A DNA stretch of 64,000 bases. Source: Eledone cirrhosa. Its lineage: Eukaryota. The notes under the pieces were generated by a model, which saw only the letters and a list, made by a program, of their open reading frames with translations, made no database searches and was not told the DNA's origin. The stretch spans positions 57,288,001 to 57,352,000 of the forward strand of contig OZ024743.1 in NCBI GenBank assembly GCA_964016885.1. The letters run 5' to 3'. The number at the start of each line of letters is the position of its first letter. Positions within the stretch are counted from its first letter, which is position 1. Made by a program: the position numbers and the translations under genes. Positions 2,251-52,577 of this stretch are shown piece by piece.

Positions 2251-2472
2251 CCAGACGTGTGTAACATCGCGGAGAAGTTTCCGTTAATTTATGTAAGAAA
2301 AAAAAACGTAAGTTTTCAGTTAAATTTTATATTATTGTGTAACTTGACCCCCGTCTGGACCTTCAGGTGGTGGGTCAACTCATTTTCGCCCCTACAGGGG
2401 CGAAATATTCGTTTGAAAAAATTTTTTCTCCATCGAATTTTTGAAAAATATCGTAAGAAGTTTGATAACGTT

Positions 2473-4363: not shown

Positions 4364-4396
4364 TTTATTTTCTTCTTTTAACTTTTCAGCACCAAC

Positions 4397-7300
4397 ATGG
4401 CCAATATAAGAGTTGGATGTGTGAATGTACGCGGCCTGGGTATGCCCTGGAAACAGGGCAAACTCTTAAACGACCTCAGGTCACACAGTATGGATGTAGT
4501 AGCCATTTGCGAGTCCAGGATCCACAGCGAGCGACAGCTAGCCCCCATCTTCGATGACTTTGAGATCTATGCATCTCTCTGTCGGCCGGGGGGTGCGGGC
4601 GGGGTTGCCGTTTTGCTGCGAAAACATCTGGGCCTCGTAACACAGACGGTACATCTGGACCCGGAGGGTCGACTGGTGGTCCTAGACGTTGACGGCAGTG
4701 AAGGTGGAGCCTTCAGGCTGGTGGCTGCATATGCCCCATCCGGGACACCGCGGCCAGACTTCTTCAAACGTCTAGAGACTTTTCTGGGAACGTCCCGCTC
4801 CTTGCTTTTAGTGGGCGACTGGAATGGAATCCTAGATGCACGTTGGGACTATGTGGGAGCATGTCCCGATAAAGGGGGGTGTAACAACCTGAAACAGTTA
4901 ATCAACCGATTTGACCTGGCCGATAGATATCGACTAGATTTTCCGACTGTGCCACTGTGGATGTGGACTAATCGTAGCGGAACATCTAGATCGTATCTAG
5001 ATAGGGTTCTAGTTAGAAATAAGGATAGGGACATGTTATGCTGTCCACAAATGTTCATGGTTGCCTATTCAGATCACAAACTAGTGACCTGCATGGCTAA
5101 CCTTGATAGAACCCATAGACAAGGACCCGGCTACTGGAAGCTGAACTTGTCGTTACCGACATGCAAAGCCTACAGTAGACGGATTAGCACTTTAGTTAAA
5201 CAGCACTTGACAGGGGCCATTGTCAACAACAGATGGTGGTACTCTCTCAAGAGGGCAGTTAGATTAGACTCGTTAGTTTTTAGTAAAGAATTAGCGTTAG
5301 ATAGAAATAGAACCGAGAAGGAACTGGTAGATAAAGTAGAAGAGGCAATTAGAAGTGGCAACGTAGCCAGCATGCTAGCAACGAGAGCGTCCTTGGACCA
5401 GTTCTTCGACGCAAAGCACGAGGGCTGCGTTGTCAAATACGTGCTCTGGGAAACGAGGGGCCAAAGCTGCTAGCTGGGCTCGAGTGACGGAGGCAAAAAG
5501 TGGCAACAAGTCCACGATTCGGTCTTTGAAGGACCAAAACGGACGCGTGATACGTGAGCCGAAGCAGATGTGTGCGGCCTTTCAGCGGCACTTTGCTCAA
5601 CTGTTCGGGCAGGGCGGCGCGCCGGGAGGGTCTATGGATTTCGGTCCATACCTCGACGGGCTACCGCGACTCTCGGACAGCGAGACAAAGTTCTGCGAAA
5701 AGCCGATTTCAGCCGCTCAGATAGGGGACGCGCTGAGCCAATGCGGCAAACGCAAATCTCCAGTTCTCGACGGTCTACCCTACGAATTTTACGTGGCAAT
5801 GCCGGACTTATTCTCCGGTCTCCTGGAAGCGGTTTACTGCAACTGGCAACAGAACGGGAGAATTCCCAGTTCTGTGACCGGGGGCGTAGTCACACTAGTC
5901 AGGAAGGACGAGAATAAGGGGGATGACATAGGCAACTTCCGGCCCATAACTCTGCTAAACACAGAGTTACAGATTTTGGCCAAGGTATTGGCAAAGAGGC
6001 GCTTATCGTCGAGAACCTGGTGGGAGAAGCGCAGACATGCACAATCCCGACCAGGTCCATACACGATAACCTCCACCTCATGCGATACATCATAGAGAGG
6101 GTAGGGTGTTAACCCGGCTTCAGTGGGGCCCTGATCAACTTGGATCAGTCTAAGGCTTTCAATAGGGTTGACGATCGTTACCTGGATGCTCGAGGCGGAA
6201 GGCTTCGGACCCGTGTTCAGGGGCTGGAATGCTGCAATGCACAACAGCAACATCTGCTCAAGAGTCAAGGTGAATGGCTACCTCTCGGAGCCGTTCCATA
6301 TCACGCGATCCATTCAACAGGGATGCCCTCTCTCCTCCCTTCTGTACGTACTGACTCTCGAGCCACTACTGCGGAAGTTGAAGCTATTGCAGGGCATCCC
6401 TCTGGAACCGGGACTGCGCAAAGCGGCGTCGGCCTACGCCGACGACTTCACAGTATTGGTGTCGAGCGCTTCGCAAATCGAGGAAGTCGGCACCTTACTG
6501 AAGGAATACGAAAGTTTCACAGGAGCGAAGCTGAACCGGGACAAGTCCATCGGTTTGCAACTCGGGTCGTGGAGAGGCAAACTGATGCCTTCCGATGGCG
6601 TCGTCGGACGCTGGACGGAAGGACCGGTAAAGCTGCTCAGGGTCTGGTTTGGTCCGGACCTCCAGGTGGAGAAGAACTGGAACGAGGTGACGGCCAAGGT
6701 GTTTGCACTCACCCAGAAGTGGGCCGAGTGTAAACTATCCTTGACAGGTCGAGCGGAAGTGGCGAACACTTTTATAGCGTCCGCCATCTACTACCGCTTG
6801 ACCGTCGTGCCTTGCCCAGCCAAAACGCTCACCAAAATGGAGCGCGCGCTCTTCCAATTCCTTTGGAAGAGAAGATCTATCTGCTGCCAACACTCTTCCA
6901 ACGGAGGGCTGGGGATGCTGTGGCTGACGATGCGCAAACACGCGCTCAGGCTGCGGCATCTCTACGTATTCCTCACCGGACAACCGGTGTGGTTCCCCGA
7001 GGAAAATGGGCGACTGGCACATCGAATGTGCCCAGGCACTCACAGCCCTCTGGCAGGCAGACCCGGCGATCAGTGGAGACTCCACTTCGTCATTCTATAG
7101 AGGGTTGATCCGCAGCAAGTGCGACGATGCGCTCGGTGAAACTCTAGGCGTAGAGGAAGATGAACTGGCCAGTCTGTTCGGTAGGACCTTCCGCCCGGGA
7201 CCGATGGAGAACTTCCAAAAGTCCCTGGCCTGGCAGCGCTACCGAGGAGCTCTACCAGTTTGAGACAAGCTCTACAGACATGAGCGCCCGGGCAGGGACC

Positions 7301-7732
7301 CTGCAAAAAAGATCTGTCCGAGGTGCGTGCGAGACGAAGAAACCGTCGCGCACGCATTCATACACTGCTCGGGCGTCACCGACCTGTGGAGCTATGTAGA
7401 ACGACTATTGTCGCGGGTGGGACCAATCCGGTTGACCACCGAGTCCATTGTCATGATCCAACCGCCACCCTCCTTCAAAAACGAAGGAGAGGCGGTTTTC
7501 ATTTGTGTGATAGCTATGGCGAAAGAGGTTGTATGGTGGACAAGGTTGAAAGGGCTGAGGTCAGACACCTTTCTCTCCGGCCAACAACTGATTCTTTTTT
7601 TTCAAATACCACTTTGGAAGAAGAATCAGGATGGAAAGAGAGGTGCTGTACCCCAGCAAGTTTTATGAAAGGTGGGTGAAAGTGGCGAGAATGGCCCGAG
7701 TGAATGGGCCTTCTCTCTATAACAGCCTGTAG
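4397..7732 (+). pseudogene. Tx1 copy C ORF2 (APE endonuclease-RT-CCHC), frameshifted
   Basis: APE motifs NVRGL, ESR, YAP, GDWN, YLD and SDH; RT motifs NFRPITLLN, QGCPLS and YADD. Split across ORFs 4397..5473, 5430..6095, 6168..7100, 7006..7263 and 7327..7668. Confidence 0.92.
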
Positions 7733-7940
7733 GTTGAGGAAAAGGAGGAGAGGCAGGGAGTACAAACTCTTCGTACTCCTGGAGTTGTGTTACCCATATG
7801 AACTGTCTCCCCCTAATGGGGAAAATCGACTAATTTTTAAATTGCATTTGTGATAATATTTTACACGTTTTTATTGTATGTAAACTTCCTCCTTTGTATT
7901 TGTCCCCTTCTTTTGTGCCCCTGTGGCTAATAAAGAAACA

Positions 7941-17365: not shown

Positions 17366-17891
17366 AGATAATCTATGGCTTTTACTTTGAACTCTGCTAC
17401 ATCATACGTCAAAACTTTACGTTAGTGAGATGTGATTTGGCTGAATCATGCGTCAAAGATTTTTATAGTTTTTATATTTTCGTATTTGAAGGTTGAGAAT
17501 GTTTCAAAGGAAAGGATTTTCCTTTTAGCAACAGTTGCCATATTCTATGAAGAATTGTATGTATGCATGGATTCAAAACCCCCGGTGGAGTCGTATGGCG
17601 TGTCTTGGACGTTTTAATCCTGGCGAAGCTCATCTCGTCTCCAGGTATGAACAGCCGATTTCTTCCAAAGAAAGTGGGAGTGAGAAAGAGAAATAGAGGA
17701 ATGGTACTTTTTTTTTATCGACATCGAAAGTTAGAAAGGCAAAATTGATTTAACATAGCGCAGAGAGCCGGACTGAATACCATTATTATTATTATTATTA
17801 TTATTATTGTTGTTATTCCTTGAATCTCAGTCATTGATGTTGGTTAACTGGAAAGTCCGTTGGATTGAATATCAAGCCACTACCTGCAGCC

Positions 17892-20800
17892 TCAGATATT
17901 CAGGACGTATCGGAGGGTTCTTGCTGTTCCAAGCAAGCATGCCCTTTGAAGCGTTCCAAAAAGCGTGAAGGGGCCGATTTTCTTTAACCATCCCTGGAAA
18001 CTTTTGGAGATAGTCCCCAGTGCGCCTATGACAATCGGGATCACTTTGACTTCATGGCAGTTCCAAATCCTTTTCACCTCCCACTTTAGGTCCTGGTATC
18101 GGTTAATTTTCTCCCTCTCCTTCTCTTGCACTCTCGTGTCGAACGGGCAGGCCACATCCACAATCAGACACGATCTTTTTTCTTTGTCCACAACCACCAG
18201 GTCAGGTCTATTGTGTTCCAGTTTTTTGTCCGTCTGTATCCTAAAATCCCACAGCACCTTCACCTGATTGTTCTCCATCACCGCCTCTGGCCTATGCTCA
18301 TACCATTTCTCAGAATGTGGTAAATTGTTTACTTTGCACAGGTGCCAGTGGATCACCCTGCCCATCACATCGTGTCTCCAGCCCTTATAGTGGGTCTGGG
18401 CTAGGTGTTTACACTCGGACACAATGTGAGCCACAGTCTCCTCTCTCTCTCCACAGATCCTGCACAGTGGGCTAGCCTCCTCCTTGTAAATATGGTGCTT
18501 CAACCACTTCGTTTTGAGGGCCTGCTCCTGTGCAGCCATTAGCATTCCTTCTGTAGCCTTTTTGAGGTCTCCTCTTCTCAACCAGTTCCGTGTCTGTGGA
18601 TCTCTAAATTCAGTTTTCTCAAAGAAGGTACTATGAAGGGATTTTCCCTTAAGGCTGCTCTTCCTCCTTGATGTTATTTCCTCCTTGGACATCCCCTGGC
18701 CTACTGTCCCCTCCTTCAGTACAGTTCTGAGCATTGGCTCCTTACTATAGGTCACGTATTTGTATAGGTTGTTTTTCTCCATCTGAACACAGTCCTCTAT
18801 GCTGATAAGACCTCTTCCACCCTCAGATCTCCTTAGGTAGAGTCTATCGACATCACTCCTCTTGTGGAACATGTTGTAGATAGTCAATAGCTTCCTAGTC
18901 TTCCTATCCATTTCTTTTTGTTCAGCAACATTCCATCTCAGAATTCCCGCACTGTACCTAATAATAGACACAGCTCGGGAATTTACTGCGCTTATGGCAT
19001 TTCTGCTGTTCAGATGTGACTTCAATACGCTCCTTACTCTCCGAATGTATTCAATTCTTAACAATTCCTTCATTTTTTTGTTCTTTATGCCATCAGCCTC
19101 CACAACGCCCAAATACTTGTATCCTTCCTCAGAGTCAATTTCCTTTATCATCTCACCTGTTGGTATCTGGATCCCGTTACTTCTGCTCAACCTACCCCTC
19201 CTCATCACAATGACTCCACATTTACCAATACCAAACTGCATACATATATCACTGCTGAAAATACGGACAGTGTCAACAAGCACATCCAACTCCTTCTCAC
19301 TTTTCCCGAAGAGCTTAAGATCGTCCATGAAGAGGAGGTGATTGATGGTAAGCTCTCCCCTTCCCAACTTGTATCCTGCTCTCACTTTTCGCAGCATAAT
19401 GGTCAAGGGCATCAGGGCAAGGACAAACAACAGAGGGGACAGGCTATCTCCCTGGAAGATACCTCTCTTGATCTTCACGCTTCCCAAGGATACTCCAGTT
19501 GATGTCAACTCTGTCTCCCAGGACCCCATACTCCTGCCTAGCAACTGTCTGATGTTATCTGCCACCCTGAAGATCTCCAGGCTTTTGGTGATCCAAGAAT
19601 GAGGCACCATGTCAAATGCCTTTCTGTAGTCTATCCATCCCATGGCAAGATCAGTGTATCTCCTCCTGCAATTCCCCATTACCATCTTATCAATAAGTAA
19701 CTGGTCCTTTGTACCACGTGACTTCTTTCGGCATCCTTTCTGTTCGTCCGGTAACAAGTTGTTTGTGTGGAGGTGATGGTAGATTTCCTCAGACACAATG
19801 CTCGTCAACAGTTTCCACATTACGGACAGACATGTGATAGGTCTATAGTTGGTAACATCATTACCCTTGATTCGGTCTTTCATTATCAGAACTGTGGTAC
19901 CTTTTGTCAACCACTCTGGCACCTCACCCGACACCAAGCAGTCATTGAACATGGCCGTCAGCTTCGGGTGGAGGGATGTTAAATGTTTAATCCAATACCC
20001 CTGCACACCATCTGGGCCTGGTGATTTCCAGTTGGTTAGTTTTTTGGCCTGCCCCTTAAGAGTTTCAACTGTGATACTCAAATCAGTTTGTTGTTGTGCC
20101 TGCTCACCGATCTCCCTCTGTACTGTCTCAATCCACCCTGCCTGGACATTATGTCTAACATCCTGCTCCCATATTCCTCTCCAGAATGTTTTAGTTTGTT
20201 CCGCCTCAGGGATCAAGTCGTTGCCTCTTTCTTTCCCTTCAAGCTGTCCAAACAGCATCTTCTGGTTGTTGTCGAACATGCGGTTCTGTCGATACTGGCT
20301 GACTCTGTTCTCGTATCGCCTGATTTTTGCACTCTTTGCTACAATGCGTTGCTTCAGTTCCTCTATGATAATATTTAGCTTTTTCCTCCTAGTTTTGTAC
20401 TTTATTTCCAGTCTATTTTTAGTGTCTATGTTTTTTAGTGTCCCATTCAGTAGGGACTCAAGCTTTCCAATGTCATTTCTCATTTCCCTGATTTGACCAC
20501 TCAGTCGTTTCTTCCACCAAGGCTCTGCTCTTTCTTGTCTGTTGTTTCCTCTCGCTTTTATACCAAGTAGTTTCCTCACCGTATTTGCTGTTGCTTTGAG
20601 GATATTGTTGCACTGGTGAAGGCTCCTCGCCTCAAGGTATGGGATGACTTTTTTTACCTTAGCTGTTGTTTCTTTTAACTTTTTCCTGTCTACAAATCTT
20701 AGGTTCATAGGTCTCCCACTATCATTGTTCAATTCATCTACCACTAAGTTTAGGATATCTACCAAATCTTGTCCTAGCCCGTCAGCATTCATCTCCTCAG

Positions 20801-21317
20801 TGGCCGTATCTCTGTTCCAGGTATTATTTATCTCAGCATTCAGATCATTGTTTGTATCGGGTGGTTTCTCCGTTCTCTCGACCTCTTCACCTTCATTTCC
20901 CACTGGCTCGTTTGCCTGGCATACTCCACCCTCCATCTCCAAGCTAATCTCTCTGCCCAGTTCCTCCAGTTCCAGCTCGCTTATCCACCCATTAGTTCTT
21001 ATTACCCGAGCCTGCCCGGCCAGTTTTTGTTCATCTAATTTAAATGGACCAATCTCGTTCCAGATGTTATGCATCCTTTTCCTATAGCCTTTCTCCTTGG
21101 GGTTACTCTTCAGGTAACATTGCATAACAGTTCTATTCAATTCTTTCGTCCAGTTGGTTCTGGTCCCTTTCCTTCTTCTTCTTCCTCCGACACCAGCAGT
21201 ATTTGGTTGACAGCCAGGTCCCTGCTGCTGAGCCAGGGAGCACCTGTTGGGTGAGAGTCTGTCACATGACATTCTAGTCTCCATTTCACCGTTATTCGAA
21301 CTGTTTAGGTTCGACAT
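17892..21317 (-). CDS. Reverse transcriptase with C-terminal CCHC finger and restriction-like (PD-D/ExK) endonuclease, 1141 aa
   Basis: Motifs include [58 protein letters not shown] and RPDLVV..VDVACP..EREK. No stops or frameshifts. Confidence 0.95.
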   Translation of the reverse strand: MSNLNSSNNGEMETRMSCDRLSPNRCSLAQQQGPGCQPNTAGVGGRRRRKGTRTNWTKELNRTVMQCYLKSNPKEKGYRKRMHNIWNEIGPFKLDEQKLAGQARVIRTNGWISELELEELGREISLEMEGGVCQANEPVGNEGEEVERTEKPPDTNNDLNAEINNTWNRDTATEEMNADGLGQDLVDILNLVVDELNNDSGRPMNLRFVDRKKLKETTAKVKKVIPYLEARSLHQCNNILKATANTVRKLLGIKARGNNRQERAEPWWKKRLSGQIREMRNDIGKLESLLNGTLKNIDTKNRLEIKYKTRRKKLNIIIEELKQRIVAKSAKIRRYENRVSQYRQNRMFDNNQKMLFGQLEGKERGNDLIPEAEQTKTFWRGIWEQDVRHNVQAGWIETVQREIGEQAQQQTDLSITVETLKGQAKKLTNWKSPGPDGVQGYWIKHLTSLHPKLTAMFNDCLVSGEVPEWLTKGTTVLIMKDRIKGNDVTNYRPITCLSVMWKLLTSIVSEEIYHHLHTNNLLPDEQKGCRKKSRGTKDQLLIDKMVMGNCRRRYTDLAMGWIDYRKAFDMVPHSWITKSLEIFRVADNIRQLLGRSMGSWETELTSTGVSLGSVKIKRGIFQGDSLSPLLFVLALMPLTIMLRKVRAGYKLGRGELTINHLLFMDDLKLFGKSEKELDVLVDTVRIFSSDICMQFGIGKCGVIVMRRGRLSRSNGIQIPTGEMIKEIDSEEGYKYLGVVEADGIKNKKMKELLRIEYIRRVRSVLKSHLNSRNAISAVNSRAVSIIRYSAGILRWNVAEQKEMDRKTRKLLTIYNMFHKRSDVDRLYLRRSEGGRGLISIEDCVQMEKNNLYKYVTYSKEPMLRTVLKEGTVGQGMSKEEITSRRKSSLKGKSLHSTFFEKTEFRDPQTRNWLRRGDLKKATEGMLMAAQEQALKTKWLKHHIYKEEASPLCRICGEREETVAHIVSECKHLAQTHYKGWRHDVMGRVIHWHLCKVNNLPHSEKWYEHRPEAVMENNQVKVLWDFRIQTDKKLEHNRPDLVVVDKEKRSCLIVDVACPFDTRVQEKEREKINRYQDLKWEVKRIWNCHEVKVIPIVIGALGTISKSFQGWLKKIGPFTLFGTLQRACLLGTARTLRYVLNI

Positions 21318-21384
21318 TTAAACACTCTTATCGAGGATTGGCGAATGTATGGCTACATAACCACCGGTGAATTACTGGTGGTGA

Positions 21385-22362: not shown

Positions 22363-22796
22363 AGCAATAGTAATAGTAATTATTATTATTATGCTGAGAT
22401 TGGTGGTGGTGGTGGTGACATTGCCGTTATCGGGCTGTTGTGTTTAGTGTACACAGAGGGGTGATGGGGTAGGTGGTGTATCTAGTTTCTGATGTTGGTG
22501 AAATTGCTGTTATTTGGCTGTTCTATATAGTGTAGACATAGGGGGTTTTCTTCCATTTATAACCATTTTCTTTTTGAATATAAAATGTATAATACAAAAT
22601 TGAATATTTGAGCGATATAACAATATATTGTGGATCCGAATTTTTTGGGACTCAAGCTGGATGTGTTATGCAACATTTGTACTAAGAATTGTTATTTCAC
22701 AATTGATTTAAATATTTTAAAAAATCAAAACTTACGGGAGCGATTTCTCGACCTTCTATCCACCATGTGTGTCTTCTTCTTCTTCTTCTTCTTCTT

Positions 22797-22859
<63 letters not shown>

Positions 22860-22860
<1 letters not shown>

Positions 22861-23702
22861 CTTGAATCTCAGTCATTGATGTTAGTTAACTGGAAAGTTT
22901 GTTGGAATGAATATCAAGCCACTACCTGCAGCCTCAGATATTCAGGACGTATCGGAGGGTTCTTGCTGTTCCCAGCAAGCATGCCCTTTGAAGCGTTCCA
23001 AAAAGCGTGAAGGGGCCGATTTTCTTTAACCATCCCTGGAAACTTTTTGAGATAGTCCCTAGTGCGCCTATGACAATCGGGATCACTTTGACTTCATGGC
23101 AGTTCCAAATCCTTTTTACCTCCCACTTTAAGTCCTGGTATCGGTTAATTTTCTCCCTCTCTTTCTCTTGCACTCTCGTGTCGAATGGGCAGGCCACATC
23201 CACAATCAGACACGATCTTTTTTCTTTGTCCACAACCACCAGGTCAGGTCTATTGTGTTCCAGTTTCTTGTCCGTCTGTATCCTAAAATCCCACAGCACC
23301 TTCACCTGATCGTTCTCCATCACCGCCTCTGGCTTATGCTCATACCATTTCTCAGAATGTGGTAAATTGTTTACTTTGCACAGGTGCCAGTGGATCACCC
23401 TGCCCATCACATCATGTCTCCAGCCCTTATAGTGGGTCTGGGCTAGGTGTTTACACTCGGATACAACGTGATCCACAGTCTCCTCTCTCTCTCCACAGAT
23501 CCTGCACAGTGGGCTAGCCTCCTCCTTGCAAATATGGTGTTTCAACCACTTCGTTTTGAGGGCCTGCTCCTGCGCAGCCATTAACATTCCTTCTGTAGCC
23601 TTTTTAAGGTCTCCTCTTCTCAACCAGTTCCATGTCTGTGGATCTCTAAATTCAGTTTTCTCAAAGAAGGTACTTTGAAGGGATTTTTCCTGAAGGCTGC
23701 TC
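22860..23702 (-). mobile_element. R4/Dong element, 5'-truncated copy 2
   Basis: CCHC plus RLE and 3' UTR nearly identical to copy 1. Bounded by (TTC)n(TTA)n at 22772-22859 and 23703-23771. Confidence 0.93.
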
Positions 23703-23723
23703 CTTCTTCTTCTTCTTCTTCTT

Positions 23724-23754
<31 letters not shown>

Positions 23755-23771
23755 TTATTATTATTATTATT

Positions 23772-24993
23772 CCTTGAATCTCAGTCATTGATGTTGGTTA
23801 ACTGGAAAGTCCGTTGGAATGAATATCAAGCCACTACCTGCAGCCTCAGATATTCAGGACGTATCGGAGGGTTCTTGCTGTTCCCAGCAAGCATGCCTTT
23901 TGAAGCGTTCCAAAAAGCGTGAAGGGGCCGATTTTCTTTAACCATCCCTGGAAACTTTTGGAGATAGTCCCCAGTGCGCCTATGACAATCGGGATCACTT
24001 TGACTTCATGGCAGTTCCAAATCCTTTTTACCTCCCACTTTAAGTCTTGGTATCGGTTAATTTTCTCCCTCTCCTTCTCTTGCACTCTCGTGTCGAATGG
24101 GCAGGCCACATCCACAATCAGACACGCTCTTTTTTCTTTGTCCACAACCACCAGGTCAGGTATATTGTGTTCCAGTTTCTTGTCCGTCTGTATCCTAAAA
24201 TCCCACAGCACCTTCACCTGATCGTTCTCCATCACCGCCTCTGGCCTATGCTCATACCATTTCTCAGAATGTGGTAAATTGTTTACTTTGCACAGGTGCC
24301 AGTGGATCACCCTGCCCATCACATCATGTCTCCAGCCCTTATAGTGGGTCTGGGCTAGGTGTTTACACTCGGATACAATGTCAGCCACAGTCTCCTCTCT
24401 CTCTCCACAGATCCTGCACAGTGGGCTAGCCTCCTCCTTGTAAATATGGTGTTTCAACCACTTCGTTTTGAGGGCCTGCTCCTGCTCAGCCATTAACATT
24501 CCTTCTGTAGCCTTTTTGAGGTCTCCCCTTCTCAACCAGTTCCATGTCTGTGGATCTCTAAATTCAGTTTTCTCAAAGAAGGTACTATGAAGGGATTTTC
24601 CCTGAAGGCTGCTCTTTCTCCTTGATGTTATTTCCTCCTTGGACATCCCCTGGCCTACTGTCCCCTCCTTCAGTACAGTTCTGAGCATTGGCTCCTTACT
24701 ATCAGTCACGTATTTGTATAGGTTGTTTTTCTCCATCTGAACACAGTCCTCTATGCCGATAAGACCTCTTCCACCCTCAGATCTCCTGAGGTAGAGTCTA
24801 TCGACATCACTCCTCTTGTGGAACATGTTGTAGACAGTCAATAGCTTCCTAGTCTTCCTATCCATTTCTTTTTGTTCAGCAACATTCCATCTCAGAATTC
24901 CCGCACTGTACCTAATAATAGACACAGCTCGGGAATTTACTGCGCTTATGGCATTTCTGCTGTTCATATGTGACTTCAATACGCTCCTTACTC

Positions 24994-24994
<1 letters not shown>
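23772..24994 (-). mobile_element. R4/Dong element, 5'-truncated copy 3
   Basis: Open 377-aa C-terminal frame at 23846..24979. The 5' junction runs into (TTA)n at 24995-25043. Confidence 0.93.
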
Positions 24995-25043
<49 letters not shown>

Positions 25044-25251
25044 GGCGACCTACGTAGTAAATCGTATCATTGTGAGCTCCGCAAAGGTTTGTTATTTTCG
25101 TTTGTTAAAAATTGTCATTTATGGAAAATTTTATTGTTAACTGTTTATAAGCGCACATACATTGTTTTCCGAAAAGGACACCAAAAAAGATTGGGGCCTT
25201 GTGCCCAAAATTTAAACTTTTATTATTATCAAAAATTTCTTTGAAAAAAAA

Positions 25252-27239
25252 ATGGCTAATTCACCTCTGCACCAAGCAGCTGAAAGCCTTCCTCACAAAT
25301 TAACACCTCACACCGACACCACCATTGTAAATGTTACTACATTTGCCAATACAAAAAAAAATATAAGCAGTAGCAATATTTTAAATTTGTATCAGGCAGA
25401 CATTCAATTCACGCCATTACCAATGACTGCAGGTGTTAAAGCCTCCACCACCACCACCACCGCGTCAACCACCACCCCTACCACCACCGCGACAACAGAA
25501 ACAAAAGAAGAAAAAAATAAATTAACTCGTGATGTCGAAACGAAATCAAGCAAAATGGACTCTTCCCCACCAAAGACGACTGACGTCACCACCACCACAA
25601 CTGAAACTAAAATTAATATTAACACAAATAACGATAGCAACAACAACAACAATGACATTATAAAACCGACCCTCAGTTTCGCCAGAGTAGCAAAACAGTT
25701 CGAAGCATTTACGGTAACTCAGGAGGATTTAGAAAATGCCAAACAAATGGTAAAGAAAGATGGGTACAGGGTCAGCCTCACCCCCCCACCTAATAAAATG
25801 GAGCATCAGCGCCTATGCACCGTGTCGTATAGAACAATAAATGTAAAATCGCGCCGAGTGGAACGGGCATCCGAGTCCCAAATCCAAAAAGCTTTGGGAC
25901 ATGTGTGGGCAAGAAAAACCCACATCAGACGTGGGCAGAAGTATGGAACCGTGGACGTGTTCTTTGAAACACCAGAGGAGGCTAGAGAACACTCCATGGC
26001 CCCATTAAGAAGTGACGACTTCACACTCGTCCCAAGCTATTGTGGCCAGAGACTCGTAAAGATCAGGGTGACCCACGTTCCACCGGCCATCGAAATTCCC
26101 TGGCTAATAGCGGCCGTCCTCGCCGGCATCGAAGCCAACACAAAAATAATAGCAATAGCAAAAGAAAAGCAGGAGAACTGGTCCGGATCTGGGATGGAGC
26201 TCCTGATCCAAGCGGACCAAAAAAGCGTTGAGGAGATCCCAGAGGTAATAGACCTCACTGACGGCAGCCACCTCACGGTAATTGTCGAGGGCAGAAGACC
26301 TAGGTGTGTCGTTTGTGGTGAAGGAACCCACCTAAGGGCTTTCTGCCCTCAGGCTAAAAGGTTGAGGCCACCTCTCCTACCCACCCCAGTGACACAACCA
26401 TCAACACCACCAGTAGCAGAGATGGCAGCAACAACTGTAGCAGCAACAACAGAAGCAACTATAACAGCAACAACCGCAGCAACAGTAGCAAAACCAACAC
26501 CACCACCACCACCAGCAAAACCAACACCACCACCACCCAACGCTTCAGAACTAGCACCAGCGCCTACACCATCCACCACGCCACAACCAAAACTAACGCA
26601 TGTGGAGGATTTTCCACTCCCCGGCCTATCACAACTGGAGACAGATTGTGACGACGAGGAGTGGGAAACGATATCCGGAAAAAAAAAGGAAACCAAAAAA
26701 GAAAAAATTCTATTCCTTCCCCCTCCAAAAACAAAATACAGAGGGAAACAAATAAATTAAGAAACAAAAAAGTTAGGACAGATATGCCACCATCCACACC
26801 AGCATCACCAACCCCATCAACCCAAACACCAACACCATCACCATCATTAACCCCAACACCATCATCACCTACACCACAAAAGTCACCAAAATGCGAAACA
26901 GAAACAAACCCACAACAAACGCAAACAAAACAAAACAACCAAAACGATACACACTACACAGCATTAAATTTGAACAACAAGCAATTATTACACTACATCC
27001 AACACAACACCAGCATCACAGAAAAAGACTACACAACAACCCCAAAATTCACACCACCTCCACACATACAAATCACTCGCATCACACAGAAAACGTACAT
27101 GACACTAAAACAAAAATTCCCCAAAGACATCGGAGACTTCCGACAAGCACTCTCCAGGAGGATTTATAAGGACATCCTTCCTGAGGAGGCCACAAGCAGT
27201 GAAAAGGATGGAAAAACCGTCCTTCCCTACGAGAAGTAA
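25252..27239 (+). pseudogene. Tx1 copy D ORF1 (zinc knuckle), with one frameshift at an A-run near 26680
   Basis: CVVCGEGTHLRAFC knuckle. The C-terminal domain homologous to copies C and E continues in ORF 26661..27239. Confidence 0.85.
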
Positions 27240-27278
27240 GGTAAGTGGTCTTTCCCATCTTTTCCACTCCTTTTCAAC

Positions 27279-30200
27279 ATGACCTCACTCAGAATAGGCA
27301 GCATAAATGCGCGTGGCTTGGGGTCGTCATGGAAGCAGGGCCACCTGCTCAACGACCTCATGTCACTAAACATAGATGTAGTGGCCATCAGCGAGACCAG
27401 AATCTCCGAAGCACAGGCTTTCGCACCGATCCTCGGCGGCTACGATGTGTACGCATCTCCCAGCCGTCCGGGATCGGGGGGAGGAGTTGCTGTGCTTTTT
27501 CGGAGAGGTTTGGATCTTGCCATACGGGCCATCTTCATGGACCCAGAAGGTAAGTTGGTGGTGCTGGACGTGACCAGCGGAGACGGCCAAGCTTTCAGGT
27601 TAGTGGTCGTCTATGCCCCGACAGGAGCAGGGCGGCCTGATTTCTTCCGGCGTCTGGAGACCTTTCTTGGAACGTCCCGCTCTTTAGTGTTAGTGGGAGA
27701 CTGGAACGGGATTTAGATGCACGCTGGGATTGTGTGGGATTAGTGGATAGGGAAGGAGGGTGCAAGAGTCTCACCAACCTGCTCAGACGTTTTGAACTGT
27801 CTGACAGGTACCGAATGGATTTCCCGAATGTACCAATGTGGACTTGGACAAATCGCATAGGGTCATCCAGATCATATCCAGATAGAGTATTTTGTAGGGA
27901 AATAGATAGGTCTAGCATAGGCTGTCCACAATTCAAGATAGTCAGCTACACGGACCACAAATTCGTGATCTGTGTGCTTGACTTAGATAGGCTTCATAGA
28001 CGAGGACCCGGCTACTGGAAGCTAAACGCGTCCTTACCAGCGCGCAAGGCCTACAGAGACCGGATTAGCGAACTAGTTAAGCGGGCGTTGACGGGCGCCA
28101 TCGTCAACAACAAGTGGTGGTTTGCTCTGAAAAGAGCAATTAGAACAGAGTCCATTAGGTTTAGTAAGACTTTAGCAATAGAGAAAAATAGAGCAGAGGG
28201 AGAATTAGTTAGAAAATTAGATGAGGCGCTTAGCAAAGGCATCGCGACCGACGTACTTGCGGCGAAATTGGCCCTTGACCAATTCTTCAATGCAAAGCAC
28301 GAAGGCTGCGTTGTCAGAGCTAGGGTGCGTGCTCTCAGACACGAGGGGACGAAAGCCGTTCAATGGGCCCGAGTGGCGGAGGCGCGCCGTGGCAACAAAG
28401 CCACGATCCGGTCTTTGGTGGACCACGACGGGCGCATGCTACTCGATCCCGGGCAAATGTGTGAAGCTTTTCAGCGACACTTCGCTCAACTGTTCGGGGG
28501 CAGTGGCGAGCCGGATCGAGGGATGGACTTTAGTGTCTACCTCGACGGACTGCCGCGGCTTTCGGCCACTGAGGCGGAGTGTTGCGAAAAGCCGATAACA
28601 ACCGCTGAAGTACGGGAGGCAATGACTAGTTGCACAAGGGGTAAATCGCCTGGTTTGGATGGTCTGCCCTATGAACTTTACGTACAAATGCCAAACTTGT
28701 TCGGAGGCCTCTTGGCGGACGTCTACTGCAACTGGCAACAGAACCGGAAAATTCCCAGCTCTGTGAGCCGAGGAGCGGTGGCGCTGCTGAGAAAGGATCC
28801 GAACAAGGGGGATAACATAGATAATTTTAGGCCCATAACTCTGCTAAACACAGAGTTCAAGATTTTGGCGAAGGTGCTAGCAAAGAGGTTGGCGCTTGTC
28901 GTTGGTGGTCTGGTGGGAGAGGCACAGACATGCGCCATTCCCGACAGATCCATCCACGACAACCTCCACCTCATGCGATACATCGTAGAGAGGGTAGCTA
29001 GGGAACCTGGCACGGGTGGGTCTTTGATCAATTTAGATCAGTCGAAAGCCTTCGATAGGGTCGACCATCGTTACCTAGAGGCAGTCCTGAGGGCGGCTGG
29101 CTTTTGGCCCATCTTCAGAGGCTGGATCGCTGCCATGCACAGCAACATCTGCTCTGTAGTGAGAGTGAACGGTCACCTTTCGGAACCGTTCAACATTATG
29201 CGCTCGGTCCGCCAAGGATGTCCCCTCTCGTCCCTATTGTACGTATTGACTCTCGAGCCATTACTGCACAAACTGGAGACGTTGAGGGGGATCCCGCGCG
29301 AACTAGGATGCGGAAGATCCGTGTCAGCATATGCCGACGATGTCACCGTAGTGGTGTCGAACGCCAAACACATCGAGGCGATCGACACTACACTAAGAGA
29401 ATACGAAGCGGTGACAGGAGCAATGATCAACCAGGAAAAGTCAGTGGGCCTGCAGCTCGGCACCTGGAGAGGCAGGTCCATGCTGTCCAACAGCGTCGTC
29501 GGGCGCTGGACAGACGGACCGGTTAAATTGGTAGGGGTCTGGTTCGGTCCAGACCTCCAGACGGACAAAAACTGGGACGAGGTGACGAGCAGGGTGGCTT
29601 CTCTCACCCAGAAATGGGCCGAGAGGAAGCTATCCCTGAAAGGTCGAGCGGAGGTGGCTAACGCGTACATCGCGTCCGTCATCTACTACCGCCTGACCGT
29701 CTTACCTTGTCCAAAGCCCCGCCTGACTGCGCTGGAGCGTTTGCTCTTTCGCTTCTTGTGGAAGGGACGCGCTCCGATGGTCAGGCGGTCCATCTGCTGT
29801 CAACACCCGCTACGTGGAGGGCTGGGCATGCCGTGGCTGATGATGCGCAGGCACGCGCTCAGGCTACGACATCTCCACCTCTTCCTCGACGGTGATCAGG
29901 TGTGGTCGCCGTTTGCTAGACACGTTTTTCCCCAGCTCGTCTCCTTGACGGAGCTGCAGTCCTGGGTCAAGCGAAGACCGAGAGGGAGCGCTTGGAGACT
30001 GGAATGTCTTCAGGCGCTCACAGCTCTCGACCAATCGGGCAATGTGATCGGTGGAAACTCCACCTTGGCGTTCTATAGGAGATTAGTGGAGGGGAAGAGC
30101 GACAACGTACTTGGAGAAACTCTAGGCGTCGACGAAAATCAACTAGCCAATCTCTTCGGAAGGACTTTCGGGCCGGGGCCTATGGACAACTTCCAGAAAT

Positions 30201-30697
30201 CCCTGGCCTGGCAGTGCTACCGGGGTGCTTTGCCAGTTCGGGATAAACTTTACAGGCATGGAGGTGCCGTCAGCCGGGCATGTCCGAGATGCGCACAGGG
30301 CGACGAAACCGTCCTGCACGCACTCGTCCAGTGTCCGAGCATTGCTGACTTGTGGGTTTATGTCGAACACCTGCTGTCACGTGTAGGACGGATCCAGCTA
30401 TCAGCTGAGTCCATCGTGAGGATTGCCCCGCCCTCTTCCTTTAGCCGGGAAGGGCAGGCCGTTTTTATCTTTCTGGTGGCCATGGCGAAAGAGATAGTAT
30501 GGTGAACACGTTTGAAAGGGCTGAAGACGAGCACTTACCTCTTCGGTGATGCCCTGATTAACTTTTTCAAATTTCATCTGAAAAGGAAAATCAGGGTAGA
30601 GAGGGAAGTGCTCTCTTCCCAGCATTTTGTTGAAAGATGGGTGAGAGAAGCAAGTATGGCCCGAATGAATGGGCCTTCTCTGAGTATGTGTCTGTAA
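27279..30697 (+). pseudogene. Tx1 copy D ORF2 (APE-RT-CCHC), with a frameshift near 27711 and a TGG>TGA stop at 30503
   Basis: Motifs include NARGL, GDWN, TDH, QGCPLS, YADD and CPRC..ETVLHALVQC. Confidence 0.93.
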
Positions 30698-30976
30698 ATT
30701 AAAGTTGGAAAACTGGGAGAGGGCACTTGCCCTGGTGGCCAGGGCCACTGTGGTCTTTTAATGGGCTTTCTCCACAAATGTCCCTCGGAAGTCTCCCCCC
30801 TATTGGGGAATTTTTCTTTGTTATTTTATTTAATCCTCTATTTTTTTTTACACGCAGAAATGCCCATTTGTACCGTCCTGTATTGTCCTGTACTGTCCTT
30901 AATGTCTACTTTATGTGAACCCTTGTGGTTAATAAAGAAAACATTATTATTATTATTATTATTATTATTGTTATTA

Positions 30977-33008
30977 CTCTTTGAGTCTCAGTCATTGATG
31001 TTAGTTAACTGGAAAGTTTATTGAAATGAATATCAAGCCACTACCTGCAGCCCCAGTTATTCAGAACGTATCGGAGGGTTCTTGCTGTTCCCAGCAAGTA
31101 TGCCTTTTGAAGCGTTCCAAAAAGCGTGAAGGGGCCAATTTTCTTTAACCATCTCTGGAAACTTTTTGAGATAGTCCCTAGTGCGCCTATGACAATCGGG
31201 ATCACTTTGACTTCATGGCAGTTCCAAATCCTTTTTACCTCCCACTTTAAGTCCTGGTATCGGTTCATTTTCTCCCCCTCCTTCTCTTGCACTCTCGTGT
31301 CGAATGGGCATGCCACATCCACAATCAGGCACGATCTTTTTTCTTTGTCCAAAACCACTAGGTCAGGTCTATTGTGTTCCAGTTTCTTGTCCGTCTGTAT
31401 CCTAAAATCCCACAGCACCTTCACCTGATCGTTTTCTATCACCGCCTCTGGCTTATGCTCATACCACTTCTCAGAATGTGGTAAATTGTTTACTTTGCAT
31501 AGGTGCCAGTGGATCACCCTGCCCATCACATCATGTCTCCAGCCCTTATAGTGAGTCTGGGCTAGGTGTTTACACTCGGATACAATGTCAGCCACAGTCT
31601 CCTCTCTCTCTCCACAGATCCTGCACAGTGGGCTAGCCTCCTCCTTGTAAATGTGGTGTTTCAACCACTTCGTTTTGAGGGCCTGCTCCTGCGCAGCCAT
31701 TAACATTCCTTCTGTAGCCTTTTTAAGGTCTCCTCTTTTCACCCAGTTCCATGTCTGTGGATCTCTAAATTCAGTTTTCTCAAAGAAGGTACTATGAAGG
31801 GATTTTTCCTGAAGGCTGCTCTTTCTCCTTGATGTTATTTCCTCCTTGGACATCCCCTGGCCTATTGTCCCCTCCTTCAGTACAGTTCTGAGCATTGGCT
31901 CCCTACTATCAGTCACGTATTTGTGTAGGTTGTTTTTCTCCATCTGAACACAGTCCTCTATGCTGATAAGACCTCTTCCACCCTCAGATCTCCTTAAGTA
32001 GAGTCTATCGACATCACTCCTCTTGTGGAACATGTTGTAGATAGTCAATAGCTTCCTAGTCTTCCTATCCATTTCTTTTTGTTCAGCAACATTCCATCTC
32101 AGAATCCCCGCACTGTACCTAATAATAGACACAGCTCGGGAATTTACTGCACTTATGGCATTCCTACTGTTCAGATGTGACTTTAATACGCTCCTTACTC
32201 TCCGAATGTATTCAGTTCTTATCAATTCCTTCATTTTTTTGTTCTTGATGTCATCAGCCTCCAGAACGCCCAAATACTTGTATCCTTCCTCAGAGTCAAT
32301 TTCCTTTATCATCTCACCTGTTGGTACCTGGATTCCGTTGCTTCTGCTCAACTTACCCATCCTCATCACAATGACTCTACACTTATTAATACCAAATTGC
32401 ATACATATATCATTGCTGAAAATACGGACAGTGTCAAGAAGCACATCCAACTCCTTCTCACTCTTCCCGAAGAGATTAAGATCGTCCATGAAGAGGAGTT
32501 GTTTGATGGTAAGCCCTCCCTTTCCCAACCTGTACCCTGCTCTCACTTTTCGCAGTACACTGGTCAGGGGCATCAGGGCAAGGACAAACAACAGAGGGGA
32601 CAGACTATCTTCCTGGAAGATACCTCTCTTGATCTTCACGCTTCCCAAGGATTCTCCAGTTGATGTTAACTCTGTTTCCCAGGACTTCATACTTTTGCCC
32701 AACAACTGCCTGATGTTATCTGCCACCTTGAAGATCTCCAGGCTTTTGGTGATCCAAGAATGAGGCACCATGTCAAATGCCTTTTTGTAGTCTATCCATC
32801 CCATGGCAAGACCAGTGTGTCTCCTCTTGCAATTCATCATTACCATCTTATCAATAAGTAACTGGTCCTTTGTACCACGTGACTTCTTTCGGCATCCTTT
32901 CTGTTCGTCCGGTAACAAGTTGTTTGTGTGGAGGTGATGGTAGATTTCCTCAGACATAATGCTTGTCAACAGTTTCCACATGACGGACAGACATGTGATA
33001 GGTCTATA
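30977..33008 (-). mobile_element. R4/Dong element, 5'-truncated copy 4 (more divergent)
   Basis: 646-aa open frame at 31041..32981 running from RT to RLE. The 5' junction is at (TTC)7, 33010-33031. Confidence 0.92.
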
Positions 33009-33513
33009 ATTCTTCTTCTTCTTCTTCTTCTAGCAGTGAGAGTGTTGTTAGTATAAATATGTGAAGACGCGGGGTTCAGCTGTTAGGGTGTTTGGCTGGC
33101 AATCGAAACGGCGTGAGTTCGATTCTTGCTCGTGCATTGTGTTCTTGAGCAATATATTTAACATTTATTTCACATTTTCTCCAATTCACGCAGCTAGCAA
33201 AAAATGAGATATAACTGTAATTCAAAGAACAAGTCGTGTCAGACACTGTGTTAGGCTGAATCTCCCTGAGAAATACGTTAAGGATACAGGTGCTCGTTGC
33301 TCGTGTAGACTGTTCTGTTGGTCGAATTACTGGATCACGCTTCTTCAGAACTGATGGAGGTTCAAGACTGCACAAAAACGCTATTTTATCAAGTATTTAA
33401 AATAGTCAGGATATTGTTAGTTTAATTATATAGTAAACATATAGTTCAACATTTACTATGTGTATAGAGACATAACACAAGAGTGAGGGCTGAAAAGCGG
33501 AGTAAACTTTTTT

Positions 33514-46020: not shown

Positions 46021-46686
46021 GGCTCGGAAAAATCTTTTTCCTAAAGCTAATTTACTGTAATGAGACTATTTTGAGTTTCTAACTCAATACATGCTTTTGA
46101 TATGTGTGTGTATATATATAAATATATCTGTTAGACACGCAGTGACTAACGACAGAATGTTTTAAGTCTGTGTGTCTAATCTGTTAGACACACAGTGACT
46201 AACAACAGAATGCTTTAAGTCTGTGTGTCTGTTGTGATGACTGACATACATGCCTAGCTTGTGAATACAAATTTCAAGGGGTATCGCTGGCCGTGGTGAT
46301 GCCTCCCAAACATCTTTTGTAATGTATCGTCTTATTGGCTAATTTCATCGTCTTATTCGCTAATCAACCAACGAGAGTAATTGTTGTTCAAAAGCATCCG
46401 CCACTTTGTTTCCATGTTTATTTATCGTTTCGCTTTCGAATCTTCCTCCAGTATTTCGTCGTTTTATCATAAAAATAAGTTATATTGTTAATTTATATAT
46501 GATTCTTTAAATTTATATTAACTATTAAAAGTCTGAAAATATTTTTATACTTCTTGCAATAATATTTATAAGATCATTTATAAAATAACAATTATATAAT
46601 CTAATTACATTACAACGATAATTTATTATTAATATATATCATGTTTAACTAGAGTTATTACAAGCGTTGCCTTAAAAAAATATTAA

Positions 46687-49600
46687 ACTAGACCAGAAAA
46701 ATGCGCAAGCTCAAAAGAGCCACAGAATGTTATAATAAACCTTCAAAAGTGTGGGACTAGAGTTGTTGCTCAAAAATATTGTAAACATTATCTATCGTAC
46801 ACTAACATACATACACATGAAAAAGACATGAACAACTCCACAGATACATCTACACATAAAGTTTCACCTCGTCAAGGAACTGAGATTTCCAACACCGAGG
46901 CTAACAACGATAACAACAACAACCACAGCAACACCACACCAAAAAAAGAAAATGTCTTTCGCTGAACAGTGAACAAAAAACAAGATTTTATAAATCTTGA
47001 CATCTTCAATGCAAGAGATGTGCTCCAGCAAGGGAGAAAATTTGTAACTTTCGAAGAGAAGGGTGGGTTTAGAATTAAATCACCCCTTGAAATAAAGGAA
47101 GACACAGTTAGAAGATCAGTGACCTTTAGGACTGTGTCCAATTCCACGAGAAAGCCATTATTTGTTAGTCAAGCAGATATAGAAGCTACTTTCAAGGAAA
47201 TTCTAGCAAATATCGACTTTCTCCAACGAGGAAAACCGTACGGAAACACTTCCGTACTGTTTAAAAGCGAGGCAATTGCCCCAAAACATTCTGTGACACC
47301 AATGGTGTCAAAAGCATTCACCTTTTTCCCTACATACATGGGAAAAAGGACTAAAAAACTAAAAATAAAAAATATACCCCCAAACATTAACATCTGGTCG
47401 ATGTTGGCTGGCTTCCTAGAGACAGAAACTGATATGATTCTTTCGATACGAAAGTCTATTCGACAAAGGTGGGTGGGTACTGATTTGGAGATTCTGTTGC
47501 AAATGAGGCCGGAGAGAATCTCCAAAATACCCGAAAGAGTCGTCATCGATGATAACAACAAAATAAACATTTCGGTAGAAGGACGAAAATTTCATTGCTT
47601 TCGCTGTGGTAGCACAGCACACCTAAAAGCCTCTTGTCCTTCACAAACACACCACAACAACATCATTAAAAAAACACTATTACTAACACCAACACCAAAA
47701 CAACCACCACCACCACAAGTACAACGACAGACGAAACAAGCAACCACACCAAAACAAACAGCCACTCAACCAACAACAACAGAAAAAACAGAGACAACAC
47801 CCCTGAAGAACACAGCCCCACCCATCCCACTCCATCAAACACTACCACAAACACACACACCGAAACACCACCACCACACAACATACCCCTACCCCACACT
47901 CCTGACGATGATTATTCATCGACGGATGAAGCTGCTTCTCCTTCTTTAAGTGAAGAAGAGGGAGAGCCGCGGAAATCTAAAAAACAAAAAAGAAGAGACA
48001 CCACAAAACCCCCAAAACTCCAATCACCAACGCCAACACACAACCACAGACACAAACAACAACACAAACAACATCACAGTCAAACATCCCCCTATCAGCA
48101 AAACCAACACCAATACCACCCCAAACACAAGCACCCACCATAAAAAGAAAACTCCCGGACGAACAACAAACTAAAACAACACAACAAAAACACAAACAAC
48201 AATACGCATACATCAACACAAACAACAAGAGTTTGATGGAGGTCATCTCCCAAAACCCCAAGGTGGAGACGGAGGGCAAAACTTTCGTTAAGTCAGAATT
48301 GTCTCCACACCTTAAACTTATAAGGATTTCTATGGGAACCTATAATGACCTGAAAAATAAATTTTCACAGGACGTGGGCAACCCTTGCCAGAAACCCATC
48401 AATCGCGTCCTGTTAAAATGTTTCCCCACCCCACCCAACACCCCATCCAGCACCCAAATGGAGATTGAACAACCCGATCTCCAGGAAACGAAAAAGTAAG
48501 TGCACCTTTCGTCCTTTTTCTTCAACTCTTCTTCACCAACATGGCTAGTTTACGAGTTGGAAGCGTGAATGTGCGTGGCCTAGGGATGCCCTGGAAACAG
48601 GGCCAACTTTTAAACGACCTTAGGTTACACGGTATGGATGTGATAGCCATCACCGAGTCCAGAATCCACAACAGGCAGCAACTAACCCCCATCTTCGACG
48701 ACTTTGAGATCTACGCATCTCTCTGTCAGCCAGGAGGTGGAGGTGGAGTGGCTGTCATGTTTCGGAAGAACCTGTACGTCGAATTACAGCAAGTACACTT
48801 GGACCCGGAGGGTAGACTGGTAGTCCTAGACGTGAACAGTATTGGTGGTGGAGCCTTCAGACTGGTGGCCGTTTATGCCCCGACCGGGCAATCGCAATCA
48901 CGGCCAGACTTCTTTAAGCGTCTAGAGTCTTTTCTGGGAACGTCTCGCTCCTTACTTTTAGTGGGGGACTGGAATGGTATCCTAGATGCAAGATGGGACT
49001 ATGTGGGAGCATGTCCCAGTAGAGGGGGGTGCAACAGCCTCAAAACTTTAATCGGCCAATTCCAACTGGCCGATAGGTATCGACTGGATTTCCCGACTGC
49101 ACCACAGTGGATGTGGGCAAACCGCAGCGGGACATCTAGATCGTATTTAGATAGGGTCTTCATTAGAGAAAGGGACAAGGAGATGTTAAGTTGTCCACGA
49201 ATGCACATGGTTGCCTATTCAGATCACACATTAGTCGTCTGCTTAGTCAACCGTGATAGAACACATAAACAAAGACCCGGATAATAGAAGCTGAACGTGT
49301 CATTGCCGGTACGTAAAGCTTACAGTGAACGGATAAGTAGACTAGTAAAGCAACAATTAACGGAGCCATCGTCAACAATAGATGGTGGTACTCTCTCAAG
49401 AAAGCAATTAGAATAGAATCGATAGGGTTTAGCAGAGAGTTAGCCTTAGAGAAAAACAAACTAGAAAGAGAACTAGTAGCCAAGGTAGAGGAAGCACTTA
49501 GAAGTGGCAACGCGGCTAGAGTGTTAGCGTCGAGAACGGCACTGGACCAGTTCTTTGATGCAAAACACGAAGGCTGCGTGGTCAGAAGCAAAACACGTGC

Positions 49601-52557: not shown

Positions 52558-52577
52558 ATATATGTGTGTGTATATAA

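Follow-up and report, generated by a model that had tools for sequence, protein, structure and literature searches.

Repeat targets and endonuclease residues in sister LINE families of Eledone cirrhosa, viewed from an ATT-flanked copy

A stretch of 64,000 nucleotides from Eledone cirrhosa (assembly GCA_964016885.1, contig OZ024743.1, positions 57,288,001 to 57,352,000 of the forward strand), hereafter the window, harbours closely related LINE copies that lie in different repeats. Element D is flanked by (ATT)n, and its relatives C and E belong to families that prefer ATCT. This arrangement raises the question of what has changed between such families and whether one hairpin loop of the endonuclease (EN) acts as the switch. 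The question bears on how APE-type LINE endonucleases acquire sequence specificity and is relevant to the collection of LINEs in microsatellite arrays and to engineered site-directed retrotransposon insertion. Earlier loop grafts drew on donors ∼20% identical and left specificity unmoved, whereas the families described here are natural, abundant, 60–81% identical in their EN and separated by a short list of residues.

Element D and its surroundings

The features of the window are as follows.

2251..7940, plus strand: element C, ATCT-type family, both flanks (ATCT)n, loop NRSGTS
17818..21370, minus strand: Dong/R4-like LINE, single open frame of 1,141 aa with RT, CCHC and what we take to be a restriction-like nuclease motif
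22860..24993, minus strand: two 5′-truncated Dong-like copies (22860-23702 and 23772-24993) with (AAT)6(AAG)17 between them
24994..25043, plus strand: (ATT)16, flanking the 5′ side of D and doubling as the upstream flank of a minus-strand 5′-truncated Dong-like copy
25044..30942, plus strand: element D, L1/Tx1-type LINE copy of an ATT-targeting family, full-length but broken (alignments, domains, both flanks)
25252..27239, plus strand: ORF1 of D, split over two frames (25252-26760 and 26652-27239) and carrying a CX2CX4HX4C knuckle
27279..30697, plus strand: ORF2 of D (APE-type endonuclease, reverse transcriptase, zf-RVT)
27839..27886, plus strand: EN hairpin region of D, WTWTNRIGSSRSYPDR; the Ile194 codon (27857-27859) aligns with L1 Pro197
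30698..30942, plus strand: 3′ UTR of D, terminal AATAAAGAAA plus 2 nt, junction without poly(A)
30943..30976, plus strand: (ATT)9-GTT-ATT, serving D as 3′ target and, read from the minus strand, forming the (AAT)n terminus of a Dong-like copy
30977..33009, minus strand: 5′-truncated Dong-like copy whose own (AAT)n end carries the 3′ junction of D, with (AAG)7 on its 5′ side
46804..52218, plus strand: element E, ATCT-type family, 14–15 bp duplication at 46789-46803 and 52219-52233, loop NRSGTS

Element D is a damaged copy: the EN is frameshifted near 27713, a stop occupies 30503-30505 and ORF1 shifts frame near 26700. A copy with an open ORF2, L127, is 98% identical to D across 5.1 kb. The resemblance of the D ORF2 to those of C and E, to which the earlier note had drawn attention together with the (ATT)n flanks, is confirmed at 71.6% identity over 2,630 aligned nucleotides for C and 71.0% over 3,493 for E; amino-acid identity to either is ∼60% in the EN and 66–68% in the remaining ORF2. 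The same note had D nested antisense in a Dong array and regarded C and E as two ATCT copies. The repeat is indeed common to D and Dong on opposite strands, but D is located in a repeat spacer flanked by two Dong-like copies and lies inside neither. Likewise, the E family is ATCT-type, but E itself is inserted at a single site with its 14–15 bp duplication and no (ATCT)n tract.

Members of the Tx1 clade of the L1 group possess two ORFs, the first of which carries a CCHC knuckle. Both traits are present in D, whose ORF2 exhibits an N-terminal APE-type endonuclease domain (PF03372) with an L1-type hairpin, followed by PF00078 (RT) and a C-terminal PF13966 (zf-RVT). The solved structure best matched by the RT is L1 ORF2p (E 1e-42; R2, E 1e-21). 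The relatives returned included no named Tx1 protein and NCBIfam was uninformative; the Tx1 label suggested for the D families rests on architecture and analogy.

Targets of the D family and of its sisters

Genome-wide, 9,314 D-family 3′ ends were matched. The earlier note had proposed a survey of their flanks: ATT lies directly 3′ of the 30 best-scoring 3′ ends (30/30) and (ATT)n directly 5′ of the 30 best-scoring 5′ ends (30/30), D itself being one of each, and because all these ends carry ATT the link is not due to chance. Both figures surpass the share of flanks (>20%) by which target preference is recognized for the Tx1 clade in the text of PMC4494074. A C or G at the fourth target base (the last base shown being non-G) characterizes 163 of the 9,314 3′ ends; among the 100 such exceptions listed, most retain ATT and none has a target starting with ATCT. 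The D family is abundant, ATT-specific and found almost only in ATT repeats.

The element might itself synthesize the (ATT)n as a tail, or copies might merely pile up passively in repeat-rich arrays. Long 5′ (ATT)n runs, full-length copies that lack a matching duplication (L197 and L204 among them) and the proximity of 64 of 100 D ends to another D end (≤15 kb, against 6 expected) speak for such a reading, which is nevertheless largely refuted and very improbable. Target-site duplications show that ATT is the target rather than a tail: in nine duplication-resolved D copies the bases past the element end are those of the genomic site, with no units added. Moreover, (ATT)n also occupies the 5′ flanks (30/30), and paired D and Dong-like ends occur 15 times in one relative orientation and never in the other. 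Junctions of D are exact and devoid of poly(A), although AATAAA lies only 6–7 nt upstream.

This genome harbours seven ATT families alongside seven of ATCT type, and three target classes (ATT, ATCT and the site of family G) are accommodated at 60–81% EN identity, the families sampled being close ones. The families are recently expanded and many copies maintain an ORF2 open over >1,100 codons. The proposal of a natural pair for mapping a target change was sound, as the sisters of D prefer ATCT and the families form a usable natural series. Family G targets a single position within a 72-bp tandem repeat (13/13 G copies with a 3′ end found), which lies inside an element with TTAA-CCCTTT inverted ends, presumably akin to piggyBac. 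With 37 EN differences and an unchanged hairpin, the comparison of C/F with G narrows the mapping further than that of D with C.

In 62 copies whose loop could be tied to their 3′ end, ATT accompanies all 39 that have Ile, Met or Thr at the loop tip and none of the 23 with Ser or Asn, and no chimera of EN and 3′ end across target classes was found among them. Candidate cross-target copies, in which a C/E/F-type end core is followed by ATT (64 matches), were rejected: of 12 examined, ten have J/K-type and one an H-type end, all of ATT families. The last of the 12 is a 32-bp match assignable to no family. A search with an outside EN (40% identical) yielded ATT-group copies only, in 10 loci and in the 19 readable of 20 regions examined.

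The H family, which uses ATT, groups with the ATCT families both in the EN tree (99) and in the linker+RT tree (77). With the base of a 902-column tree left open, a clade uniting the ATT families and P0001 is not rejected (p-AU 0.30), whereas the ATT clade without P0001 receives a p-AU of 0.018. The state of D seems more likely to be ancestral than derived. The ATT/ATCT split represents one evolutionary event on one branch.

The endonuclease and the bases around the nick

Alignment to L1 and predicted fold bear out that the stretch singled out earlier is the EN beta-hairpin loop, of L1 type. Its sequence is WTWTNRIGSSRSYPDR for D, WMWTNRSGTSRSYLDR for C and WMWANRSGTSRSYLDR for E, in agreement with the earlier note, but the proline of SYPD is private to the D copy, other D-family copies having SYLD. 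The predicted EN model attained a pLDDT of 96.4 with a 120-row alignment (38 from the single sequence), and its top 12 Foldseek matches are all L1-EN. Residue 194 sits at the hairpin tip of this pLDDT 96 model, aligned to L1 Pro197.

One reading would make the loop by itself, through Ile/Ser at 194 and Ser/Thr at 196, responsible for the choice of (ATT)n or (ATCT)n. Residue 194 agrees with the target in all 14 families (Ile/Met in 7/7 ATT, Ser in 7/7 ATCT), the Pro197 of L1 enters the minor groove (PMC8565326), base preference at +2 differs between the target groups and cleavage by TRAS1 and R1Bm is altered by hairpin changes (PMC1919474). Nonetheless, the loop as main switch is unsupported, and as sole switch highly doubtful, because 194 alone within it tracks target (residue 196 does not across the 14 families, one ATCT family being S-G-S), because 33 further EN positions track equally, in a single event, and because the loop does not differ whenever the target does: G and C, both NRSGTS, have two targets. 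The strongest base differences lie 5′ of the inferred nick, on the primer side, beyond the contacts that the L1 loop makes at +1 to +3 (PMC8565326), and neither L1-EN point mutants nor a Tx1L loop graft transferred specificity (PMC1950540). What stands of the proposed loop switch is the tip residue.

Changes in the EN are in excess where the target changes. Of the 230 EN positions compared, 34 separate the ATT from the ATCT group, and the remaining ORF2 has 67 such positions among 898 (Fisher p=0.001); for C/F and G the corresponding figures are 37 among 233 and 79 among 900 (p=0.002). Three control splits without a target change gave no such excess (p=0.10, p=0.08, and a third with fewer EN changes), the effect being modest, about twofold versus 1.3-fold in two controls. 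Recombination or relaxed constraint could also generate it, and with a single branch behind the ATT/ATCT contrast, each of the 34 positions may be a passenger. The EN changes of G cluster at 115–124, the site of L1 Asn118 on another DNA-contact loop, where Tyr98 of R1Bm affects recognition (PMC1919474). Q1 and Q2 share Phe at 115 with G, and the single Q copy with a linked end (n=1) sits at ATCT.

At duplication-resolved sites, few in number, scored by eye and originating from samples enriched in exceptions, G occupies +2 in 13/16 ATCT-type cases versus 0/8 for D; the many exception copies whose duplication could not be read, their junctions being older, nested or deleted, are excluded. Outside tandem repeats the figures are 5/8 and 0/7 (p=0.026); the nick is placed from junctions with a possible error of 1 nt, which would shift the +2 reading. 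ATCT is found at 75 of 92 C/E/F-type ends (hand count) and still comes first at junctions moved 2–4 nt into the element end (five rows), a pattern expected from RNA–target pairing.

A set of EN changes spread over several DNA-contact surfaces probably accounts for the difference between ATT and ATCT, with the hairpin tip a likely minor contributor. The EN would nick the bottom strand at T|purine, AAT|RA in D and mostly AGAT|AG in C/E/F. The RNA would terminate shortly after AAUAAA with a few bases resembling the target, pair with the freed 3′ end and so set the start of reverse transcription, and a second nick would yield duplications of 7–19 bp. The loop tip perhaps gates G at +2, Ile-to-Ser relaxing its exclusion; loops at 44-47, 61/66 and 155-159, along with RNA pairing, may govern the primer-side difference. 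Nicking and RNA–target pairing are both used in target choice by L1 (PMC4014453).

Alternatively, a relaxed T|purine nicker might leave the site to be chosen mainly by pairing with flank bases read through from the previous insertion site. The best-kept target bases are the three to four that would become primer, junctions are exact and lack poly(A) despite the nearby AATAAA, register-shifted junctions occur, and SART1 and R1Bm pair in this manner (PMC7265360). This alternative appears unlikely: EN change is in excess exactly at the splits with a target change, base preference extends past the primer to the 3′ side of the nick (G at +2), none of the 62 linked copies combines the EN of one group with the target of the other, and EN exchange shifted the target in TRAS1 and SART1 (PMC1919474). 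A related, rather speculative view is that part of the target identity in this LINE radiation is transmitted by something other than the protein: read-through flank RNA would pair with the nicked strand, so that a site like the parent's is chosen, a new repeat coming first (for example in G) and the EN adapting later on several loops.

Related elements and shared repeats

APE-type L1-group LINEs in microsatellites are known from Kibi and Koshi of teleost fish (Tx1 clade) and from crocodilian (TTCC)n and (TTTC)n Tx1 families; the relatives of D differ in targeting (ATT)n and ATCT, with several target classes in one genome. Tx1-clade targets described in PMC4494074 and PMC3812793 include (TC)n and (TTC)n, and neither (ATT)n nor ATCT is listed in the text of these papers. 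Neither these families nor (ATT)n/(ATCT)n Tx1 targets appeared in the literature searched on Tx1 in octopus and other cephalopods, on Kibi/Koshi and on target change; Repbase and Kojima and Fujiwara 2004 may hold a description.

Tx1L of Xenopus laevis is a target-specific APE LINE inside the non-autonomous piggyBac element Tx1D (PMC4494074), much as G resides in its TTAA-CCCTTT-ended host, but the G site is a 72-bp tandem repeat within that host and the hairpin here is of L1 length, falling two residues short of the Tx1L graft. Human L1 ORF2p EN shares the fold (Foldseek TM 0.85 to 1vyb, for the predicted model), the hairpin and the inferred nick after T; it is only 21% identical, and D has a far narrower target and junctions without poly(A). 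TRAS1 and SART1 are likewise related APE LINEs with different repeat targets, moved by EN exchange (PMC1919474), whose RNA anneals to the target when reverse transcription starts (PMC7265360); unlike D they belong to the R1 clade, have telomeric targets and carry poly(A) tails.

Dong (R4 clade) targets the TAA microsatellite (PMC3812793), and the Dong-like neighbours in the window display its repeat, with (AAT)n ends, and its architecture of one ORF with RT, CCHC and restriction-like nuclease. Dong shows no kinship to D, from which it differs in nuclease, ORF number and orientation on the repeat. D and Dong-like copies may use common repeat tracts and thereby build mixed arrays. In one 44.7-Mb stretch, 15 of 50 Dong-like ends have an adjoining D end.

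Element D and the ATT target

Element D, an L1/Tx1-type LINE copy, lies between Dong/R4-like copies, as shown by the order along the minus strand: Dong-like copy, (AAT)n, D in antisense, (AAT)16, Dong-like copy, (AAT)6(AAG)17, Dong-like copy.

25044-30942: D, (ATT)n at both ends

Its ORF1 contains a CCHC knuckle and its ORF2 encodes an APE endonuclease (EN), a reverse transcriptase and a zf-RVT domain, disrupted by an EN frameshift near 27713 and a stop at 30503-30505. The earlier note described D as flanked by (ATT)n with an ORF2 similar to those of the ATCT-type copies C and E, and this holds: D shares 71–72% DNA identity and about 60% EN protein identity with them.

The window, G000:C4:57288001-57352000, belongs to an animal genome of 3.0 Gb in 1,796 contigs, which contains 9,314 occurrences of the exact D 3'-end motif. 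In the flank survey proposed in the earlier note, ATT comes after 30/30 of the best-matching D 3' ends, and (ATT)n stands before 30/30 5' ends. At 163 3' ends the fourth target base is C or G and the last base shown is not G; the 100 listed mostly have ATT followed by CTT or GTT, and none starts with ATCT. Duplications are readable in nine copies (L004, L015, L180, L192, L205, L212, L302, L309, L315), and in all nine the element end abuts genomic sequence directly, so ATT is the target and not a tail. In a comparison of 100 D ends with 50 Dong-like ends over C1:1-44.7 Mb, 15 D ends had a Dong-like end no more than 150 bp away (expected, 0.008), all 15 oriented as in the window.

Some D 3' ends (L164, L172, L179, L183-L185, L188, L190, L197) meet a single ATT followed by (CTT)20-29, and a matching duplication is absent wherever the 5' end is seen. 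The 5' region and ORF1 start are replaced in a D subfamily (L118, L122, L193, L196, L198, L199, L210), and no fewer than four distinct heads precede the similar ORF2s of ATT families. In two Dong-like copies (AAG)n adjoins the 5' end, while the 3' end is followed by (AAT)n and next by (AAG)n (22772-22859, 23703-23771, 33010-33031); they may therefore also insert into (AAG)n, and (AAT)n would then be their own tail. A 440-bp tandem repeat (21376-22362) adjoins the full-length Dong-like copy, and two further 5'-truncated ATCT-type copies (1-2152) are stacked 5' of C. PMC13282606 lists five Dong/R4-like and 13 L1/Tx1-like recently active families in Octopus vulgaris, a mix that resembles the present one, as a resemblance only.

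ATCT-type targets and family G

Genome-wide counts are 24,178 for a shared 3' motif and 9,802 for the EN motif. From 100 listed 3' ends, eight not of C/E/F type (F being a further family) were set aside; by hand count the remaining 92 start with ATCT (75), ATAT (8), CTCT (6) or other sequence (3), and none with ATT. Five of the six CTCT ends are ATCT in shifted register. The target of the ATCT group is often one unit only, so what it recognizes is a short motif, not a microsatellite. Eight of 100 listed C/E-type exception ends fall at a non-microsatellite hot spot starting ATCTGTAA within another repeat (L263, L272, L290). E itself sits in one arm of a palindrome (46684-46803 and 52234-52560; arms roughly 230 bp), a fold-back-like or MITE-like element.

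Family G, which provides 20 of the first 100 EN-motif matches, has a fixed target position in the unit of a 72-bp tandem repeat, which lies inside a host element with TTAA-CCCTTT inverted ends.

L091-L096, L115, L323-L330 (G000:C1): G copies

The 3' junction is the same in all 13 copies with a 3' end found (2/15 had none) and the 5' junction in all 14 with a head, the two positions being 7 nt apart in the unit. The G hairpin is identical to that of C, and its EN changes cluster at 115-124, the site of L1 Asn118 and R1Bm Tyr98 (PMC1919474).

The endonuclease hairpin and target choice

Grouping of 40 EN-anchored regions and later loci gave seven ATT families (D, H1-H3, J, K, L117) and seven ATCT-type families (C, E, F, G, Q1-Q3), the latter monophyletic (98/100). 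The finding in the earlier note is real. The loop strings reported for D, C and E were confirmed; SYPD is private to the D copy, and its family reads SYLD. Loop and 3' end could be linked in 62 copies: an Ile, Met or Thr tip accompanies ATT in 39/39, a count inflated by D-directed searches, and a Ser or Asn tip does so in 0/23. Outside relatives that have this loop (P0048, P0049, P0065, P0114) carry Ile, which makes ATT the more likely ancestral state.

The EN model (pLDDT 96.4; TM 0.85 to L1-EN) frames the loop by strands 190-191 and 198-199, and alignment equates Ile194 with L1 Pro197 and Gly195 with His198. In the L1-DNA structure the hairpin contacts +1 to +3, and Lys23, His45 and Lys70 grip the upstream groove (PMC8565326). 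The candidate switch of the earlier note is partly supported: residue 194, alone in the loop, tracks the target, copy L230 having loop S-G-S with an ATCT end. In all, 34/230 EN positions separate the groups (clusters 38-47, 55-66, 77-92, 155-159, 194, 212-221), and G combines the loop of C with another target. EN changed more than the rest of ORF2 on both target-change splits (p=0.001, 0.002); three splits without target change showed no EN excess (p=0.10, p=0.08, one deficit). A Tx1L loop grafted on L1-EN altered nicking and did not confer Tx1L specificity (PMC1950540). As a mechanism, a switch by this loop alone is less likely. The families offer a good test series, in which C/F versus G is the tighter pair.

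Nick context, RNA pairing and related systems

With the first duplicated A as start, the inferred cut strand reads T|purine at all sites, one being ambiguous (L147). The largest difference between ATT and ATCT sites is on the primer side, AAT versus AGAT. On the loop side, in a small, post hoc, hand-read set, G occupies +2 at 13/16 ATCT-type versus 0/8 D sites (5/8 versus 0/7 outside tandem repeats), a result that leaves room for a tip effect, in which Ile could keep the amino group of guanine out of the minor groove. Junctions that are exact and lack poly(A), together with register-shifted ones, suggest RNA-primer pairing, as known in L1 (PMC4014453) and SART1/R1Bm (PMC7265360).

No published description of these families was found, in a search whose scope lay outside Repbase, Kojima and Fujiwara 2004 and the PMC4494074 supplement. 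They work in the manner of Kibi, Koshi and Tx1L (PMC4494074, PMC3812793), the Tx1 label here being given by architecture and analogy. A splice-donor-like AG|GTRAGT stands at the ORF1 stop of D (27239-27246), some 25-45 nt 5' of the ATG of ORF2, with a run of pyrimidines after it; this putative signal, which could control ORF2 expression, is kept at the same place in G, H, J, K, C and F, with the variant AA|GTAAGT in E.
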